Shown here piece by piece: positions 3,549 to 19,700 of a stretch of 46,142 nucleotides of DNA. A model generated the notes under the pieces. The model was not told where the DNA came from. It saw only the letters and a program-made list of their open reading frames with translations, and did not search any database. This stretch comes from Escherichia phage ULINTec7. The stretch lies in the sequence record MZ997841.1; one strand, written 5' to 3'. A program made the position numbers and the translations under genes. Numbering within the stretch: position 1 is the stretch's first letter; each line of letters starts with the position of its first letter.

Positions 3549-3611
3549 CCTTATCGGTGGCATCTTCTTAGGTGTCACCTATTAAGGTTTCTTTCACTAG
3601 GAGTAAACAAG

Positions 3612-6239
3612 ATGCAAGACCTACACGCTATTCAACTTCAACTTGAAGAAGAAATGTTTAACGGCGGTATCCGTCGCTTTGAAGCGGACCAACAACGCCA
3701 GATTGCATCCGGTAATGAATCAGACACGGCATGGAATCGCCGCTTATTGTCCGAGTTAATCGCGCCAATGGCTGAAGGTATTCAGGCATACAAGGAAGAG
3801 TATGAAGGTAAAAGAGGCCGTGCACCACGTGCATTAGCTTTCATTAACTGCGTAGGGAATGAAGTAGCAGCATATATCACCATGAAAATCGTTATGGATA
3901 TGCTGAATACAGACGTTACCTTACAAGCCATCGCTATGAATGTAGCCGACCGAATCGAGGACCAAGTACGTTTTAGCAAGCTGGAAGGTCACGCAGCTAA
4001 GTACTTTGAGAAAGTGAAGAAGTCGCTTAAGGCTAGCAAGACTAAATCTTATCGTCATGCGCACAACGTAGCGGTAGTAGCTGAGAAGTCTGTTGCTGAC
4101 CGTGACGCGGATTTCTCCCGTTGGGAGGCATGGCCTAAAGACACCTTGTTGCAAATAGGCATGACCTTGCTAGAAATCTTGGAGAATAGCGTATTCTTCA
4201 ATGGTCAACCTGTCTTCCTTCGTACCTTGCGCACTAACGGCGGAAAGCATGGTGTTTACTATTTACAGACCAGTGAACATGTTGGCGAGTGGATAACTGC
4301 ATTTAAGGAACATGTAGCGCAGCTCAGCCCTGCCTATGCACCTTGCGTTATACCTCCCCGCCCTTGGGTATCACCTTTTAACGGCGGTTTCCACACTGAG
4401 AAAGTAGCAAGCCGTATTCGTCTGGTAAAAGGAAACCGCGAACACGTCCGCAAGCTGACCAAAAAGCAAATGCCAGCGGTTTACAAGGCTGTTAACGCTT
4501 TGCAGGCGACTAAGTGGCAGGTTAATAAAGAAGTTTTGCAGGTAGTAGAGGACGTTATCCGTCTCGACCTTGGTTATGGTGTACCTTCCTTTAAACCACT
4601 CATCGACCGCGAAAACAAACCAGCTAATCCGGTGCCGCTAGAATTTCAGCACCTGCGAGGCCGTGAACTGAAAGAGATGCTAACGCCGGAACAGTGGCAA
4701 TCCTTCATTAACTGGAAAGGTGAATGCACCAAGCTGTACACCGCAGAAACTAAGCGTGGCAGCAAGTCGGCGGCTACGGTCCGCATGGTTGGTCAGGCCC
4801 GTAAATATAGCCAGTTCGACGCAATCTACTTCGTGTATGCACTGGACAGCCGCAGCCGTGTATATGCGCAATCTAGCACGCTCTCACCGCAATCAAACGA
4901 CTTAGGCAAGGCACTCCTACGGTTTACCGAAGGGCAGCGCCTTGATAGCTCTGAGGCGCTTAAATGGTTTTTGGTGAACGGGGCTAATAACTGGGGTTGG
5001 GATAAGAAAACTTTCGACGTGCGCACCGCTAACGTGTTAGATGGTGAATTCCAAGACATGTGCCGCGACATTGCAGCGGATCCTCTGACCTTCACTCAAT
5101 GGGTAAATGCCGACTCCCCTTACGGCTTCCTTGCTTGGTGCTTTGAATATGCGCGTTATCTGGATGCACTGGATGAAGGCACGCAAGACCAATTCATGAC
5201 GCACCTCCCAGTCCATCAAGATGGTAGTTGTTCTGGTATCCAGCACTACAGTGCTATGCTACGCGATGCAGTAGGTGCGAAAGCGGTAAACCTTAAGCCC
5301 TCTGACTCCCCTCAAGATATTTATGGTGCCGTTGCGCAGGTAGTAATTCAGAAGAATTATGCATACATGAATGCAGAGGATGCGGAAACCTTCACTTCTG
5401 GCAGCGTGACTTTAACAGGTGCAGAACTTCGTAGCATGGCTAGTGCGTGGGATATGATAGGAATCACTCGCGGCCTGACCAAAAAGCCTGTAATGACACT
5501 ACCTTATGGCAGCACACGTCTAACCTGCCGTGAATCAGTGATTGATTATATCGTTGATTTGGAAGAAAAAGAGGCCCAACGGGCTATTGCGGAAGGGCGT
5601 ACCGCCAATCCTGTACATCCTTTTGATAATGACCGCAAAGACAGCCTGACACCTAGCGCAGCTTATAACTATATGACAGCTTTAATCTGGCCTTCTATTT
5701 CGGAAGTGGTTAAAGCTCCTATAGTGGCAATGAAAATGATTCGTCAGCTTGCACGTTTCGCAGCTAAAAGAAACGAAGGCTTAGAATATCCCTTACCAAC
5801 TGGCTTCATCTTGCAACAAAAGATAATGGCTACCGATATGCTCCGCGTATCCACTTGCTTGATGGGTGAAATCAAGATGAGTCTCCAGATTGAAACAGAT
5901 GTAGTTGATGAAACGGCAATGATGGGTGCGGCTGCTCCTAACTTCGTCCATGGTCACGATGCTAGCCACCTGATTCTGACTGTATGTGACCTAGTGGATA
6001 AAGGTATTACATCCATTGCAGTCATCCATGATTCTTTCGGTACTCATGCAGGACGTACCGCAGACCTGCGGGATAGCTTAAGGGAAGAAATGGTTAAGAT
6101 GTATCAAAACCATAATGCCCTGCAAAACCTGCTAGATGTGCACGAAGAGCGTTGGTTAGTAGACACCGGAATCCAAGTACCAGAGCAAGGAGAGTTTGAC
6201 CTTAACGAAATCTTAGTTTCAGACTATTGTTTCGCATAA
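3612..6239 (+). CDS. Single-subunit DNA-dependent RNA polymerase (T7/SP6 type)
   Basis: 875 aa with [16 protein letters not shown] and [13 protein letters not shown] motifs matching the T7 RNAP catalytic region. Confidence 0.97.
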
Positions 6240-7875: not shown

Positions 7876-8662
7876 TAACATTAGCGCCGCCATGTAGTAA
7901 TACATGGGCAATAATCGTGTGAACTCAGGGGAAGACTAGAACAGTTAATCCTGAGCCAAGCTAGGCACACCTCAAATTCAAAGGAGGTGTTATGCAATTT
8001 AAAGAAGTACCAGATCACAGTAATTATATTTGTTATGAGAATGGCACGGTTGTTAATCGTAAGACTGGAAAGGTCTTGAAAGAAGATACAACTAACCGAG
8101 GTTATAAGCGGATTACAGTAAGCAAGGGCAACAAGGTAACACGTTGGAGTGTGCACCGTTTAGTTGCTTTACTGTTTATCCCTAACCCTCATAATTATGA
8201 AACTGTTAATCACATATCGGGAGATAAGACGGATAACTCTGTTAGTAATCTTGAGTGGATGAGCCAAGAACAGAACCAAGCCCATGCTAAATATACAGGA
8301 CTGTGTCCTAAAGGTGAGGCTGTTGGCACTAATAAGTTCAAAGAGGCAACTATTCATCAAGTGTGCAAGCTAATAGAGAAAGGTTTATCTCGCGGTGAAA
8401 TTATGAAAGCAACGAGCATCTCTAAAGCAACCTTTGATGACATTCGTAGAAGGAAGACTTGGAAGCACGTATCTTGTTCATATAAATGGTGACAATCTGG
8501 TGTGCCTAGAAGGTGCAACGACTATCCCGAAAGGGAGTACAGCCAAGCGGCTGGAAGCGCACGACACCCATCGTGGGTGATGATATAGTCTGGTCTATAT
8601 GGGGACATATAGCAGTTCATAAGAGAACGGGCGTGGCTTAGCGAACCACGTCGAACATAACG
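7876..8662 (+). mobile_element. Putative group I intron carrying an HNH homing endonuclease ORF, inserted in the helicase Walker A codons
   Basis: The 5' exon ends in U (7875) and the insert ends in G (8662). Exon 3' end GGCGU can pair with intron GCGCC at 7884-7888 (P1 with a U.G wobble). The downstream frame opens right after a stop at 8658-8660 with GKTEF and no start codon. Joining gives the contiguous P-loop GAGSGVGKTEF. Confidence 0.6.
7992..8492 (+). CDS. HNH homing endonuclease (intron-encoded)
   Basis: 166 aa with HRLVALLFIPNP...VNHISGDKTDNSVSNLEW, a typical HNH/AP2-type motif; AGGAGG SD upstream; a paralog of the ORF at 10976. Confidence 0.85.
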   Translation: MQFKEVPDHSNYICYENGTVVNRKTGKVLKEDTTNRGYKRITVSKGNKVTRWSVHRLVALLFIPNPHNYETVNHISGDKTDNSVSNLEWMSQEQNQAHAKYTGLCPKGEAVGTNKFKEATIHQVCKLIEKGLSRGEIMKATSISKATFDDIRRRKTWKHVSCSYKW

Positions 8663-9497
8663 AGGTAAGACTGAGTTCCTTCGTGAAGTAGTTAAGCACC
8701 TCATTGAAGAACACGGTGAATCTGTAGGCATCATTTCTACAGAAGACCCGATGGTCAAGGTGTCCCGTGCTTTTATCGGCAAGTGGATTGATAAGCGTAT
8801 TGAGTTACCGCCAACCAACGACCCGAAAGAAGATGGATACCGTGAGGTGTTCGACTACACCGAGGAAGAAGCTAACGCCGCCATTGATTATGTAGCTGAT
8901 ACAGGTAAGCTGTTTGTGGCTGACCTAGAGGGTGACTATTCGATGGAAAAGGTAGAGCAAACTTGCCTAGAGTTTGAGGCTATGGGCATTTCTAATATCA
9001 TCATTGATAACTTAACGGGGATTAAATTAGATGAGCGTGCTTTTGGTGGGAAGGTTGGTGCACTTGATGAATGCGTCAAGCGGATTGGTACTATCAAAGA
9101 CCGACACCCGGTTACTATATTCCTTGTATCACACCTTACACGTCCTCCGGCAAACCGTACCCAACATGAAGAAGGTGGCGAAGTTATCCTTTCTGACTTC
9201 CGAGGCTCAGGCGCTATCGGATTCTGGGCATCTTACGCCTTGGGGATTGAGCGTAATACAAGAGCTGAAACGCTTGACGAAAGGACTACCACGTACATCT
9301 CATGTGTCAAAGACCGCGACCAAGGTATCTGGACTGGAACCAAGGTCATGCTTAAGGGTGACATTCAAACCGGACGTTTAATGGAACCACAAGCCCGTAC
9401 TAAGTCATTTGATACAGGTGAAGCAAGGCAACAAGAAGTGCCGGATTTACCGGACACTATAGAAGAGACAACCTTTGACGATGAACAGGAGTTTTAA
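8663..9497 (+). CDS. DNA primase-helicase, exon 2 (helicase RecA-like domain)
   Basis: Frame reads GKTEFLREVV... from 8663, through the ORF-track ATG at 8751, to DDEQEF. FLVSHLTRP and SDFRGSGAIGF...LGIERN resemble T7 gp4 helicase motifs. Exon 1 plus exon 2 is 1989 nt, a 662-aa product. Confidence 0.7.
9445..9467 (+). promoter_or_regulatory. Phage-RNAP promoter inside the helicase 3' coding region
   Basis: ATTTACCGGACACTATAGAAGAG matches the consensus. Confidence 0.65.
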
Positions 9498-10908: not shown

Positions 10909-11016
10909 ATGAATAACTACGACTCTGATTGGGATTTCTACGATTCAATGCAATCTAAACCAGAAAGGAGGGAGGATGAGTTCGAAACAGATCAAATGTA
11001 CGAGGATTTTTACTAA
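10909..11016 (+). CDS. Hypothetical small acidic protein (35 aa)
   Basis: Short ORF that overlaps the start of the HNH gene; weak call. Confidence 0.2.
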   Translation: MNNYDSDWDFYDSMQSKPERREDEFETDQMYEDFY

Positions 11017-11455
11017 CTACATCCTCTACTCTGATGGTCGAGTTCTTAACGAGAAAACCGGACAATATCTAAGAGGTTACTTAGATAAAGATGGGTATCA
11101 TATTATGAATATTAAAGGGAAACACCTTAAAGTTCATCGATTAGTTGCTATCCATTTCATACCTAACCCTAATAATTTACCTGAAGTTAACCATAAAGAT
11201 CATGACCGTCTAAACAATAATGATTGGAATCTAGAGTGGTGTACTCATCAAGATAACAACAAGCATAGCTTACATTTAGTAATAGCTTCTTGTGCTAAAC
11301 GCTATGACTTTATATCACCACAAGGTGTCCATGTAGAAGTCTATAACTTACGTGAGTTTTGTAGGAATAACAACCTACAGCAATCTCATATGGTTAAGGT
11401 GGCTAAAGGTAAAGTAAGACATCATAAAGGTTGGACTAATTATGCTAGATGTTGA
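10976..11455 (+). CDS. HNH homing endonuclease (free-standing)
   Basis: 159 aa with HRLVAIHFIPNP...VNHKDHDRLNNNDWNLEW; AGGAGGGAGG SD; paralog of the intron ORF at 7992. Confidence 0.85.
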   Translation: MSSKQIKCTRIFTNYILYSDGRVLNEKTGQYLRGYLDKDGYHIMNIKGKHLKVHRLVAIHFIPNPNNLPEVNHKDHDRLNNNDWNLEWCTHQDNNKHSLHLVIASCAKRYDFISPQGVHVEVYNLREFCRNNNLQQSHMVKVAKGKVRHHKGWTNYARC

Positions 11456-16525: not shown

Positions 16526-16549
16526 TATTTACTGGACACTATAGAAGAG
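16526..16549 (+). promoter_or_regulatory. Phage-RNAP promoter
   Basis: TATTTACTGGACACTATAGAAGAG. Confidence 0.8.
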
Positions 16550-16598: not shown

Positions 16599-16976
16599 AT
16601 GTTCAAGATTGAAACTATCGTAAACCGTGTTGTTAAAGGTGCTGCTCTGGTATCCGTTGAGTCTTTCATTATCGTCGATGAAGCTGATCAACTGGTAGCT
16701 GGTACTAAGGCTTACGATACCCGTGAAGAAGCTCAGGCTAAGATTGACAGCATGGGTAACTTCGCTGCTGGTCTGGAGTTCGCTCGTGCTTGCTTCCCTG
16801 AGCAGGCTGACAAAGCTCAGATTGGTAAGGCTAATATCGTAGCTGAATATCTGGATTGGATTGCTGCTGGTAAGCCGGTGAAAGAAGTTAAGTCTGCTGA
16901 AGAAGCTGAAGCTCAGGCAGTAGAAGAAGTAGCTGCACCGGTAGATGCTCCGGTAAGCGAAGAAGAAGAGTTTTAA
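16599..16976 (+). CDS. Hypothetical acidic protein (125 aa) with C-terminal SEEEEF tail
   Basis: Bracketed by a consensus promoter upstream and a hairpin plus T-run downstream; AAGGAG SD. Confidence 0.65.
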   Translation: MFKIETIVNRVVKGAALVSVESFIIVDEADQLVAGTKAYDTREEAQAKIDSMGNFAAGLEFARACFPEQADKAQIGKANIVAEYLDWIAAGKPVKEVKSAEEAEAQAVEEVAAPVDAPVSEEEEF

Positions 16977-16982
16977 TTGATG

Positions 16983-17014
16983 CCCTGTCTGCCTTAGTGT
17001 AGGCAGGGTCTTTT
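16983..17014 (+). terminator. Putative intrinsic terminator
   Basis: Stem CTGCCT/AGGCAG with a 6-nt loop, followed by GGTCTTTTG. Confidence 0.45.
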
Positions 17015-17040
17015 GCGTAATAGTTATTGGAGAATGAATT

Positions 17041-17346
17041 ATGCCGACTATTAAATCTCGTTTAGTAGCAGACTATGTGTATGGTCGTGACTTAAAGTTA
17101 ATGCAAGATTACTTTAAAGTAATCATCCTGCTGGATGGAGAAGTGTTTCACACTAAAACATTCACCCTTCCTGAATTGTTTGATTTAGGTTATTGGGTTT
17201 ATACATATCAGGCCATAGCAGACAAGGTGCTACTCAGTGTATTAGAGGAGTGGCCTACATGCGACCAAACTTCGACTTCGGAGCTACAGTATCGGAAGAC
17301 AATAATCTCATCTTGTGGCCAACTGAAGGTAATAGAATCGCTTTAA
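17041..17346 (+). CDS. Hypothetical protein (101 aa)
   Basis: ORF with GGAG SD that overlaps the exonuclease start by about 88 nt. Confidence 0.3.
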   Translation: MPTIKSRLVADYVYGRDLKLMQDYFKVIILLDGEVFHTKTFTLPELFDLGYWVYTYQAIADKVLLSVLEEWPTCDQTSTSELQYRKTIISSCGQLKVIESL

Positions 17347-18287
17347 TAGATGCTGATATGCTACCCTACATCGTAGCTTATACAATCAGTGACATGACTT
17401 ATGTGCGAGCCACAACTCGTGTTAAGTCAGGACAAGTCCCATCAATCAAAGATACACCTGAGTGTAAGCAAGCGTGTGACCGTGTGAACTCCTTGCTCAA
17501 CTCTTGGGTGTATGCAGCAGAGTGTGATGCAGCTAAGTTATTCATGACGAAATCAGAAGCTAACTTCCGTGTTCGCCTAGCCTTCACCAAGCCTTATAAG
17601 GGTCAACGTAAGACCGAGAAGCCTCCGTTCTTCTATGAATTGCGAGAGCATCTCTTAGAGGTTCATGGTGCAATCTTGGCAGATGGAGAAGAGGCTGATG
17701 ACCTCATGAGCATTGCACAATGGGACAGCCACCGCCGCTTCCAGCAAGATACAGGTAACGAGTTCCCTATCGGTAGTCCAGAGCATAAAGCATTCTCTGA
17801 TACTTGCATCGTTTCCTTAGATAAGGATTTGATGATTGTTCCCGGTTGGCATCTTCAGCCGGGTCAAGAGAAGAAATGGGTAGAGCCTATGGGTTGGCTT
17901 GAGTTACGCCGTAAGGCTAATGGTCAGGTTAAAGACCTTAAAGGTGCTGGCCTCATGTTTCATTATGCACAGATGATTATCGGTGATGATATTGATAACT
18001 ATGCTGGCATACCTGGACGTGGTGCTAAATACGCCTATGATCTTCTCAAAGATTGTAAGACAGAGAAAGAGTTGTACATGGCAGTGCTTGGTGCTTACAA
18101 GGCTAAGTTCGGACATGGACAAGTTAAGATTAAGAATTACCGAGGTGGTTATCGTATCGGCAAGGCCTTTGACCTGATGCTCGAATGTGGTCGCCTAGCT
18201 CACATGGCAAGATTCAAAGGTGATATATGGCGAGCCGATAAGAACCCAATCTTGTGGGGAGATGATGCGGAATGGTTAGCAAATTAA
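17259..18287 (+). CDS. 5'-3' exonuclease (T7 gp6 / FEN-like)
   Basis: IALIDADMLPYIVAY, IVSLDKDLMIVPG and GDDIDNYAGIPGRG resemble T7 gp6 ILVMDGDWLV, IISCDKDFKTIP and GDITDGYSGIAGWG. Start at 17259 has AGAGGAG SD; an alternative ATG lies at 17193. Confidence 0.85.
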   Translation: MRPNFDFGATVSEDNNLILWPTEGNRIALIDADMLPYIVAYTISDMTYVRATTRVKSGQVPSIKDTPECKQACDRVNSLLNSWVYAAECDAAKLFMTKSEANFRVRLAFTKPYKGQRKTEKPPFFYELREHLLEVHGAILADGEEADDLMSIAQWDSHRRFQQDTGNEFPIGSPEHKAFSDTCIVSLDKDLMIVPGWHLQPGQEKKWVEPMGWLELRRKANGQVKDLKGAGLMFHYAQMIIGDDIDNYAGIPGRGAKYAYDLLKDCKTEKELYMAVLGAYKAKFGHGQVKIKNYRGGYRIGKAFDLMLECGRLAHMARFKGDIWRADKNPILWGDDAEWLAN

Positions 18288-18682
18288 AATCATCGGAGGT
18301 AGCAGCTTATAAGAGGGAATTGCTAGAGAAGCAAGGATGGAAGTGCCCACTATGTGGCGGCAGTCTCAAGGCTGTTACTCCTATAAACCGTGTACTTGAC
18401 CATGACCATGAGACAGGATTCTGCCGTGCTGTTGTATGCCGAGGCTGCAATGGTGCAGAAGGAAAGATTAAGGGTGTTATCTCTGGTTACGGTAAGGCTG
18501 GTAACAACCGTTACTTCCAGCTTCAATGGTTAGAGCGGCTATATGAATACTGGAAGTTACATAGTACGCCTCAGACAGATAAGTTATATCACAAACACCA
18601 AACGGAGGCAGAGAAGCGCGAGGCTAAGAACCGTAAGGCACGCCTTGCTTATGCAAGAAAGAAGGAGGTTAAAGTTGGGTAA
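18272..18682 (+). CDS. Endonuclease VII-type Holliday junction resolvase
   Basis: CPLCGG...LDHDHETG...CRGCNGAEGKIKG resembles T4 endo VII (CLICQ...LDHDHEL...CNLCNAAEGQMKH). Confidence 0.8.
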   Translation: MVSKLKSSEVAAYKRELLEKQGWKCPLCGGSLKAVTPINRVLDHDHETGFCRAVVCRGCNGAEGKIKGVISGYGKAGNNRYFQLQWLERLYEYWKLHSTPQTDKLYHKHQTEAEKREAKNRKARLAYARKKEVKVG

Positions 18683-19682
18683 GCTTCGCAGCTTGTACAA
18701 AGACTCCGAGGTACTTGATGCAATTGAGCAAGCTACCGACGAGAAAGGTAATGTTAATTACAATGAGATGGCACGTGTATTATCGTGTCACCCTGTGGGT
18801 AAGAAGATTACCCGCCAGTTGGCTCGATACTGGCATGGTCAATTCAAGAAGACCAAGAAGAATGGTGATTATTACCAGACCCTTCTGCAAGAAGATAAGC
18901 GTATCAAAGAAGAGCGTAAGCTCAGGACTCCTGACCGCTACGAGGATTTGGCTATTGTACCATTGCCTGACTCGCCTCATCGAAGTGTACTGGTAATCCC
19001 TGATACTCATGCACCTTATGAGCATCCAGATACCTTAGAGTTCCTTGCAGCAGTCGCGGCACGTTACCGTCCAGATACAGTGGTTCACTTAGGAGATGAG
19101 GCAGATAAACACGCCCTCTCCTTCCATGACTCTGACCCGAATCTGGATAGTGCTGGCATGGAGCTAGAGAAGGCTCGTGTCTTCATGCACAAGTTGCACA
19201 AGATGTTCCCTGTGATGCGCCTGTGTCATTCTAATCACGGCTCTATGCACTTCCGTAAGGCAAGCGCCAAGGGTATTCCAGTGCAATATCTTCGCACCTA
19301 CCGTGAAGTCTTCTTCCCAAATGGAGGTGGCGACCAGTGGGATTGGCAGCATACACATGTTCTTGAGTTGCCGAATGGCGAACAAGTGGCATTCAAGCAT
19401 CAACCTGCTGGCTCTGTCCTAGCAGATGCAGCGCATGAGCGTATGAACCTTGTGTGTGGTCACTTGCACGGTAAGATGTCTGTGGAGTACGCACGTAATA
19501 CACATGAACAGTATTGGGCTGTGCAAGGTGGCTGCTTAATTGATGAGTCGTCCCGTGCATTTGCCTATGGGCGTGAGTCTAAATACAAGCCAGCATTAGG
19601 TTGTGTGGTTATTCTGGAGGGTGTACCTCATATTGTCCCGATGCAAACCAATAGCGACAACCGTTGGATTGGCAAGATTTAG
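18675..19682 (+). CDS. Calcineurin-like metallophosphoesterase
   Basis: Motifs VIPDTHAPYEH, HLGDEAD, SNHG and CGHLHG. Proposed TTG start at 18675 with GAAGGAGG 6 nt upstream; the ORF track extends to 18543, overlapping the endo VII gene. Confidence 0.6.
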   Translation: MGKLRSLYKDSEVLDAIEQATDEKGNVNYNEMARVLSCHPVGKKITRQLARYWHGQFKKTKKNGDYYQTLLQEDKRIKEERKLRTPDRYEDLAIVPLPDSPHRSVLVIPDTHAPYEHPDTLEFLAAVAARYRPDTVVHLGDEADKHALSFHDSDPNLDSAGMELEKARVFMHKLHKMFPVMRLCHSNHGSMHFRKASAKGIPVQYLRTYREVFFPNGGGDQWDWQHTHVLELPNGEQVAFKHQPAGSVLADAAHERMNLVCGHLHGKMSVEYARNTHEQYWAVQGGCLIDESSRAFAYGRESKYKPALGCVVILEGVPHIVPMQTNSDNRWIGKI

Positions 19683-19700
19683 TTGACACTATAGAACAAA
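19677..19700 (+). promoter_or_regulatory. Phage-RNAP promoter (variant)
   Basis: ATTTAGTTGACACTATAGAACAAA. Confidence 0.6.

Follow-up and report, generated by a model that had tools for sequence, protein, structure and literature searches.

A TTG-initiated metallophosphoesterase gene of Escherichia phage ULINTec7 and its possible role as a DNA-directed enzyme of the replication module

Introduction

Phage-encoded metallophosphoesterases (MPEs) have been connected with the loss of host DNA. T5 A1, a predicted metallophosphatase, was reported to be both required and sufficient for the degradation of host DNA (bioRxiv 10.64898/2026.04.02.716235). Gp48 of mycobacteriophage A10ZJ24, also an MPE, shows phosphodiesterase activity in vitro and disrupts the genomic DNA of its host, and counter-defence through host DNA destruction has been proposed for it (PMC12287305). 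Closest to the gene described here is gene 22 of phage K1-5, which is annotated at 16753-17760 of that genome (GenBank AY370674, RefSeq NC_008152), carries the RefSeq product name 'metallo-phosphoesterase' and begins with TTG in both records, the sole TTG among the 52 annotated coding sequences (CDS) of K1-5. We analysed its equivalent in Escherichia phage ULINTec7 (MZ997841.1), a stretch of 46,142 nt that we call the window. The complete CDS lies at 18675-19682, is likewise 1008 nt long, ends with a TAG at 19680-19682 and encodes a protein of 335 aa (38.3 kDa). Positions are those of the window unless another genome is named, and the MPE gene, the endonuclease VII gene before it and the two promoters that flank their segment are on the plus strand.

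Neither the gene nor its TTG start is new. An earlier reading of the DNA made without database searches (the sequence-only reading) had called an MPE gene with a probable TTG start in the replication module, and since K1-5 gene 22 was already annotated with that codon, the observation reproduces existing annotation. Both the enzyme class and the module were borne out: every motif that had been named is present by direct reading and in alignments, and the gene context agrees. What we add is a comparative proof of the start codon, the two-domain layout, the finding of inteins in homologs, the recurrence of weak starts and a remote link to T5 A1. From the start codon, the domain layout, the intact active site, the family distribution and the genomic context, we infer that the protein is a dose-limited, DNA-directed (tethered) phosphodiesterase or nuclease of the replication/recombination module, and we put the probability of this at roughly one half.

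Start codon

In the 1.5-kb region around the gene, DNA identity is 99.4% to Vectrevirus T147P9 and vB_Eco_Sem1 and 95.7% to K1-5, so by sequence comparison we place the window with the K1-5/SP6-like podophages of the genus Vectrevirus (Autographiviridae, Molineuxvirinae). The gp22-type proteins are 99–100% identical to those of these closest relatives. PHROG 221 matches the protein over its full length (E 3.4e-105, residues 1-334 on profile positions 16-358 of 367).

The TTG initiation codon at 18675-18677 is in frame with the open reading frame (ORF) that ends at the TAG, and it is annotated alike in K1-5. It is preceded by a Shine-Dalgarno (SD) sequence, AAGGAGGT, at 18662-18669, which lies inside the CDS of endonuclease VII (endo VII) and ends 5 nt before the start (6 nt from its GGAGG core). 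The sequence-only reading had given this element as GAAGGAGG at 18661-18668, a shift of one base. The endo VII gene (K1-5 gp21; 18272-18682; Pfam Endonuclease_7, E 1.5e-12; phrog_423, E 2e-47) has its stop codon TAA at 18680-18682, and since its last 8 nt (TTGGGTAA) overlap the start of the MPE gene, the two are probably translationally coupled.

The TTG had also been taken as the only well-placed initiation codon. Its position after the SD and its overlap with the endo VII stop stand, but it is not the sole in-frame start, as the frame is open upstream and contains ATG 18543 and ATG 18651 within the endo VII gene. The best SD score among all in-frame candidates belongs to TTG 18675, the only codon with a strong SD, and this SD is conserved in K1-5 and its SP6-like relatives. 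We ruled out both upstream codons by comparison with homologs. ATG 18543 has no SD, would create a 140-nt overlap with endo VII and has no homolog support. ATG 18651 has its SD 12 nt away, and the equivalent codon is TAC in the SP6 clade.

We found 2806 homologs. Down to 47% identity their length is about 335 aa and their alignment begins at residue 2-5, and query coverage is 99–100% for nearly all homologs among the matches listed. In an alignment of 24 protein sequences, conservation begins at residues 3-5, with K3 and R5 nearly invariant, and an N-terminus of the form M-[AGS]-K-[LIV]-...-L-[FWY]-[TS] is common to all Autographiviridae subgroups. K1-5 and SP6-type genomes have TTG at the codon aligned with 18675, many others have ATG, and seven loci (L015, L018, L020, L023, L024, L030 and L052) have GTG. 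L023 and L024 have an in-frame TAA immediately upstream of the aligned codon, so an earlier start is impossible there. We are therefore highly confident, from this comparative evidence, that translation starts at TTG 18675.

Public annotations of the gene conflict. In vB_Eco_Sem1 (L003, 772-1911, PV717788) it is a 379-aa product from an ATG within endo VII that is equivalent to 18543, an extension of 44 codons, and endo VII itself is uncalled. The annotation of Klebsiella phage IME184 (P0046) truncates the protein to 229 aa.

Recurrence of weak starts

Start calls over 79 viral loci gave 40 ATG, 32 TTG and 7 GTG. After dereplication at 90% identity there were 46 clusters, of which 31 start with ATG, 10 with TTG and 5 with GTG, and three clusters mix ATG and non-ATG members. 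For background, K1-5 has one TTG and two GTG starts in its 52 genes.

Many of the TTG calls are in Drulisvirus-like genomes (L046, L047, L049, L051, L053, L056, L060, L061, L066, L067, L069-L073, L075, L077 and L083). In Drulisvirus KpV48 (Slopekvirinae; L087, 4707) the RefSeq ortholog starts with TTG, preceded by GAGAGG. Its catalytic domain is about 50% identical to that of the window, and the gene follows the DNA polymerase gene and a promoter, not endo VII. Near-identical sister genomes of the TTG-starting Drulisvirus-like orthologs use ATG, so the weak start recurs in the MPE family, in lineages independent of each other, and is not a peculiarity of K1-5. This pattern in the sequences points to repeated switching and to tolerance of, or selection for, low translation. 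Toxicity of the protein may be the reason for keeping translation low.

Three loci (L019, L021 and L022, around 3575-4000) have about 430 nt inserted between endo VII and the MPE gene, including the end of a CDS in the MPE frame. The MPE gene starts with ATG and has a weaker SD in all three, so the loss of coupling to endo VII coincides there with an ATG start.

Catalytic domain and active site

The catalytic domain covers residues 101-335 (18975-19679) and is the only part common to the whole family. All five motifs of PF00149 can be read in it, with S in place of G in motif III, and they are invariant or nearly so in the 24-sequence alignment and in a second alignment of 61 diverse family representatives. 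Motif I is D110-T-H112 (metal ligands; 19002-19010), invariant in the smaller alignment and nearly so in the larger. Motif II is G140-D141-E-A-D144-K-H146 (19092-19112), in which the bridging ligand D141 is invariant in the 61 representatives. Motif III is S186-N187-H188-G189 (19230-19241), an SNH variant of the canonical GNH(D/E). Motif V is G262-H263-L-H265 (19458-19469), and H242 (19398-19400) is the probable metal ligand of motif IV. N187, H188, H242, H263 and H265 are invariant in both alignments. We therefore read the domain, on its sequence, as a binuclear metallophosphoesterase with every metal-binding motif intact.

The match to Pfam Metallophos (PF00149) is a marginal pass, at 21.6 bits against a gathering threshold of 21.5. 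Across the family, 35 of the 61 representatives match PF00149 at E < 0.01, the best at 2.5e-13. An AlphaFold model with a predicted local distance difference test score (pLDDT) of 81 contains the MPE fold, a beta-sandwich flanked by helices. In Foldseek, LpxH ranked first with a low template modelling (TM) score, and the structural matches were generic for the fold, with TM 0.35–0.6 and 10–19% identity. Sequence searches of the PDB with the window protein and with the family profile returned nothing useful, and an NCBIfam scan gave sub-threshold matches only, to PdeM and YfcE.

A segment after motif II, residues 143-160 ('ADKHALSFHDSDPNLDSA'; 19101-19154), is specific to the family and nearly invariant. 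In the 24-sequence alignment H146, S149, H151, S153, P155, L157, S159 and A160 are invariant, followed by an invariant G161. The model has low confidence here (pLDDT <50), and the segment may be a family-specific substrate-binding loop or lid.

N-terminal domain

Residues 1-84 (18675-18926) form a separate N-terminal domain, with helices at 10-20, 29-37, 47-55 and 72-79 in the model. It is joined to the catalytic domain by a linker of residues 85-100 (18927-18974) that is poorly conserved in the 24-sequence alignment and has no regular secondary structure in the model. The isoelectric point of the first 95 residues is 9.35, against 6.6 for the remainder of the protein. The best structural matches of the domain are Myb/homeodomain-like DNA-binding domains, and the model thus suggests a basic, Myb/homeodomain-like three-helix domain of a DNA-binding type. 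In Pfam, the N-terminal domain of the window protein had no helix-turn-helix (HTH) match.

A profile search over 1.84 billion cluster representatives gave 3052 relatives, 747 of them at E <= 1e-30. Most of the 3052 match profile positions of about 100-336 only, and many stand alone at a length of about 235 aa; therefore the catalytic domain is the family core and the N-terminal part is variable. When we scanned 20 representatives with N-terminal extensions individually, eight had an HTH-type Pfam match (E < 0.01) at the extreme N-terminus, and three of these scored above the Pfam gathering score: P0152 (HTH_23, 33.7 bits), P0188 (HTH_24, 27.4 bits) and P0142 (HTH_psq, 22.6 bits, and HTH_3, 23.1 bits). 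NCBIfam added matches to HTH regions of the IS630 and IS21 transposase type among family representatives. The family appears from these sequences to be phage-only, with HTH extensions recognisable in other branches. We also tried to relate the window's N-terminal domain to these HTH-bearing N-termini at the profile level, and this was rejected (hhalign probability 0.2%).

Pectobacterium phage PP1 (L025, 3779-4825, NC_019542) lacks about 364 nt relative to its 99.8%-identical sister POP72, equivalent to about 18500-18865 in the window. Residues 1-76 of endo VII are fused in frame there to MPE residues from about 64 to 335 in a 348-aa ORF, and the C-terminus of endo VII and the N-terminal domain of the MPE are lost.

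Inteins in homologs

The active site of some homologs is interrupted by putative inteins. Insertions, each about 300 aa long, follow the 'GDE' of motif II in P0121, P0150, P0131 and P0267 (equivalent to residue 142/143, nt ~19100), and one of the same size follows the 'DLH' of motif I in P0153 (equivalent to residue 112/113, nt ~19010). They begin with Cys, contain a TxxH block (TTPNH) and end in Asn with Cys at +1, all hallmarks of inteins. A LAGLIDADG_3 domain (30 bits) is present in the P0153 insertion. For the motif-II insertions neither Pfam nor the PDB gave an intein match, and they are labelled inteins by their boundaries and TxxH block only. On this evidence inteins would interrupt metal-binding motifs I and II at two independent sites. 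Inteins are typical of replication and repair enzymes, and their presence in these motifs suggests, from sequence, that the active site is important.

Relationship to T5 A1

We aligned eight sequences of T5 A1 and its homologs (from T5, Sugarland and Vibrio, Agrobacterium, Caulobacter and Flavobacterium phages) and compared this alignment with the 61-sequence MPE family alignment. In hhalign the two gave a probability of 89% (E 2e-6) over 213 columns, which span the entire catalytic domain and cover all of the motifs. The comparison pairs SNHG with SNHD, and it pairs the Ser/His segments after motif II with each other.

Agrobacterium phage Atu_ph03, an autographivirus, has an A1-like gene between helicase and DNA polymerase I (L102, 5653-7110) and is without a PHROG-221 MPE. 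It is a single case, and it may be compatible with functional substitution between the two MPE clades.

Genomic context

In the window the gene order is gp18, gp19, a 5'-3' exonuclease (gp20), endo VII (gp21), the MPE, a DUF3310 'nucleotide kinase' (gp23), an ATP-dependent DNA ligase (gp24) and a GNAT acetyltransferase. The core of an SP6/K1-5-type phage RNA-polymerase promoter (TTGACACTATAGAA) is at 19683-19696 and begins one base after the MPE stop. The promoter as a whole, ATTTAGTTGACACTATAGAACAA at 19677-19699, overlaps the last sense codon and the stop of the MPE gene with its upstream part (ATTTAG). The nearest upstream phage promoter, at 16533-16546, bounds a segment with gp18, gp19, the exonuclease, endo VII and the MPE. 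The MPE gene is a middle-class gene and the last in the segment between promoters 16533 and 19683. Over both strands and with <=2 mismatches, the SP6-type promoter matches the window 12 times, where chance would give 0.42; similar cores are at 9451, 10338, 14526, 15295, 16533, 24716, 37470, 39575 and 41254, and a weaker match is at 2395.

Across approximately 80 viral loci the commonest arrangement is endo VII followed by the MPE. This order is found in Molineuxvirinae-type genomes and in genomes with an RNA polymerase gene after the block, which we read from gene order as phiKMV-like. Drulisvirus-like genomes have the MPE about 4 kb upstream of endo VII. Over these loci and two metagenomic contigs, the neighbours include DNA polymerase, exonuclease, endo VII or endonuclease I (endo I), ligase, ribonucleotide reductase, MazG and nucleotide kinase. 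In all of these places the gene is part of a replication or nucleotide-metabolism module. The two contigs, which have divergent members of the family, are likewise phage modules of this kind and carry family-A DNA polymerase, MazG, ribonucleotide reductase, endo I and 5'-3' exonuclease. We considered linkage to ligase as a family-wide feature and rejected it, since it is not conserved across the viral loci. In a collection of isolated phages, 669 records have the catalytic domain, mostly Autographiviridae of Klebsiella, Escherichia, Pectobacterium, Pseudomonas, Aeromonas and Vibrio.

Gordonia phages DekHockey33 and Strosahl (H88/H89) have a very distant MPE (~22% identity, E 1e-4) that adjoins a 'nucleotide kinase' gene, an adjacency that echoes that of the MPE and DUF3310 genes in the window.

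Elsewhere in the window, the ORFs at 7992-8492 (166 aa) and 10976-11455 (159 aa) have similar N-termini ('...YENGTVVNRKTGKVLK' and '...YSDGRVLNEKTGQYLRG') and look like homing endonucleases of the HNH/AP2 type. They are in the region from primase/helicase to DNA polymerase, and the K1-5 gene table has no counterpart of the same size. The two ORFs probably account for part of the extra length of the window (46,142 vs 44,385 bp).

Proposed function and alternatives

In the mechanism that we propose, translation of the MPE starts at TTG 18675, served by a near-perfect SD, and is probably coupled to the termination of endo VII 3 nt downstream. The weak start codon would keep the dose of the protein low. 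Its N-terminal domain would tether the catalytic domain to DNA, where the enzyme would act as a metal-dependent nuclease and hydrolyse phosphodiester bonds or end phosphates. The protein would join the 5'-3' exonuclease (gp20) and endo VII (gp21) in the breakdown of host DNA, in the processing of replication/recombination intermediates, or in both. The sequence-only reading had offered two functions, action on nucleic-acid ends or on cyclic or oligonucleotide signals of the host in an anti-defence role. The former fits the DNA-binding-type N-terminal domain, the HTH fusions in relatives, the replication/recombination setting and the remote relation to T5 A1, and the latter gained no positive evidence from the locus. 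The architecture suggests action on DNA and not on immune signalling nucleotides.

Several points weigh against a tethered DNA enzyme. In the literature searched, K1-5 gp22, its SP6 ortholog and PHROG 221 appear in genome descriptions only, and no study of their function was found. A hidden Markov model of eight A1 homologs matched nothing in the window at E <= 10, so the protein does not belong to the A1 family in that sense. We had considered A1 as the closest MPE clade and rejected this, as single-sequence hhalign controls (SbcD, LpxH, YfcE, CpdA and ApaH) fail to single it out; the scores were 28.5 for A1, 29.5 for E. coli SbcD and 29.0 for CpdA. We therefore claim only that the PHROG 221 catalytic domain appears remotely related to T5 A1 in sequence, and the remoteness of the link belongs on this side of the balance. 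No partner of the Rad50/SbcC type was evident. The TTG codon could be a historical accident and not the result of selection for a low dose. Finally, the PP1 fusion is natural and viable or else an artefact of assembly, and the loss of the N-terminal domain in it is unfavourable to tethering.

The position of the gene just before DUF3310 and the ligase raises the question of an end-healing enzyme, one that removes 3'-phosphates or opens 2',3'-cyclic phosphates on broken DNA or RNA before the gp24 ligase seals them. DUF3310 (gp23) might then give the 5'-phosphate, which would make a three-gene analogue of bacterial Pnkp or of T4 Pnk plus ligase. However, the ligase link is not conserved: phiKMV-type phages and Drulisvirus have no ligase near the MPE, which adjoins endo VII and RNA polymerase or comes after DNA polymerase. 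PdeM, the ligase-associated MPE, scores 21.9 bits where the cutoff is 150, and many other MPE matches are stronger than the one to PnkP. In PHROG the DUF3310 family is labelled a nucleotide kinase and not a polynucleotide kinase, and one record notes it as T7 gp1.7-like. We consider end healing unlikely. Nor do we favour an enzyme of nucleotide metabolism, a small-molecule phosphodiesterase or pyrophosphatase like YfcE, ApaH or LpxH that reshapes nucleotide, dinucleotide or nucleotide-sugar pools in infection. The structural matches that include LpxH are fold-generic at the TM and identity values above, and N-terminal domains of a DNA-binding type recur across the family, which would be hard to explain for a soluble small-molecule enzyme, so our expectation of such a role is low.

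In the anti-defence role, the protein would disarm abortive-infection systems by hydrolysing the signalling nucleotides of CBASS, Pycsar, type III CRISPR or Thoeris. Such substrates can be hydrolysed by an MPE, and the T5 A1 clade, to which the family is remotely related, was predicted to have a counter-nucleotide role (Iyer et al. 2021, PMC7824862), but T5 A1 itself now appears to act via host DNA degradation (bioRxiv 10.64898/2026.04.02.716235). The gene is conserved widely over many Autographiviridae subfamilies, in a replication module under middle promoters, and does not look like a patchy early accessory gene. Fusion to domains of a DNA-binding type also argues against this role, and the putative active-site inteins point to a housekeeping enzyme of replication or repair. 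The window MPE had no match in PADLOC, a weak test because PADLOC holds models of defence systems and not of counter-defence proteins. The characterised enzymes of anti-defence that degrade signals have other folds, with Acb1 a 2H fold and Apyc1 a metallo-beta-lactamase fold, and the MPE fold of the window protein is unlike both. We regard an anti-defence phosphodiesterase as improbable. Some records carry the annotation 'phosphatase 2a-like protein', which would mean a Ser/Thr (or Tyr) protein phosphatase like lambda PP. The protein has PDTHA, GDEADKH and SNHG where the PPP signatures are GDxHG, GDxVDRG and GNHE, and no PPP model matched in the Pfam and NCBIfam scans, so we give this reading very little credence.

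A broader version of the tethered DNA enzyme would unite PHROG-221 and T5 A1 in one wide clade of MPE nucleases that are specific to phages and tethered to DNA. Such enzymes would serve as the missing 'host-chromosome killers' of many Autographiviridae that are without a T7-type endonuclease I, with their toxicity held down by TTG and GTG starts, and would give a general counter-defence by destroying host DNA. We think this generalisation is doubtful and offer it as speculation.

Significance

Because the annotation is years old, its confirmation changes little. The gene is still among the most widely conserved uncharacterised genes in podophages of the SP6, K1-5, KP34 and phiKMV types, and phage therapy makes heavy use of these podophages against E. 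coli, Klebsiella, Salmonella, Pectobacterium and Acinetobacter. If the protein is a DNA-directed nuclease for host-DNA breakdown or for the maturation of replication intermediates, it would fill a gap in podophage replication biology and provide a mechanistic link to T5 A1. Should it degrade host DNA, an indirect role in counter-defence could follow, as proposed for Gp48. The TTG start matters in practice, since automated annotation either extends the gene into endo VII, as in Sem1, or truncates it, as in IME184. Over-expression of the protein from an ATG could be toxic.

Comparison with known systems

The PdeM family (TIGR04123), the ligase-associated MPE endonucleases of the DNA-damage response, resembles the window protein in having an MPE near an ATP-dependent ligase, and it is the best NCBIfam match, seen in seven of the 61 family members. 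However, the match covers only 33 residues around motif II, its score falls far below the cutoff, and the ligase linkage is unconserved in the phage family. Mre11/SbcD and archaeal PolD DP1 differ from the window protein in motif III, which is SNH here and not GNH, and sequence similarity to them is confined to motif I. No capping domain was evident in the window protein when it was compared with Mre11/SbcD.

Mycobacteriophage A10ZJ24 Gp48, a Cluster A MPE, is similar in being a stand-alone phage MPE with five motifs. It is toxic to its host and gives a functional precedent for a phage MPE nuclease (PMC12287305), but it is expressed early. In a tblastn search with the catalytic domain (E 1e-3), neither the ten most frequent organism names nor the matches listed included a Mycobacterium phage, and this is not a direct test of homology to Gp48.

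T5 A1, which is associated with second-step DNA transfer as well as with host DNA degradation, shares with the window protein a phage MPE catalytic domain, the SNH form of motif III and a Ser/His-rich segment after motif II, and both families have extra N-terminal regions. A1 differs in its length of 556 aa with an unrelated N-terminal region of about 280 aa, in having HD and not GD in motif II, and in being a pre-early gene; its own biochemistry is still unproven. Closest of all are K1-5 gp22 and its SP6 and K1E orthologs (PHROG 221, the 'metallo-phosphoesterase' of Autographiviridae), whose name was taken from the motifs. They are the same gene, with the same 1008 nt, the same TTG and the same place after endo VII, and we see no substantive difference between them and the MPE of ULINTec7.

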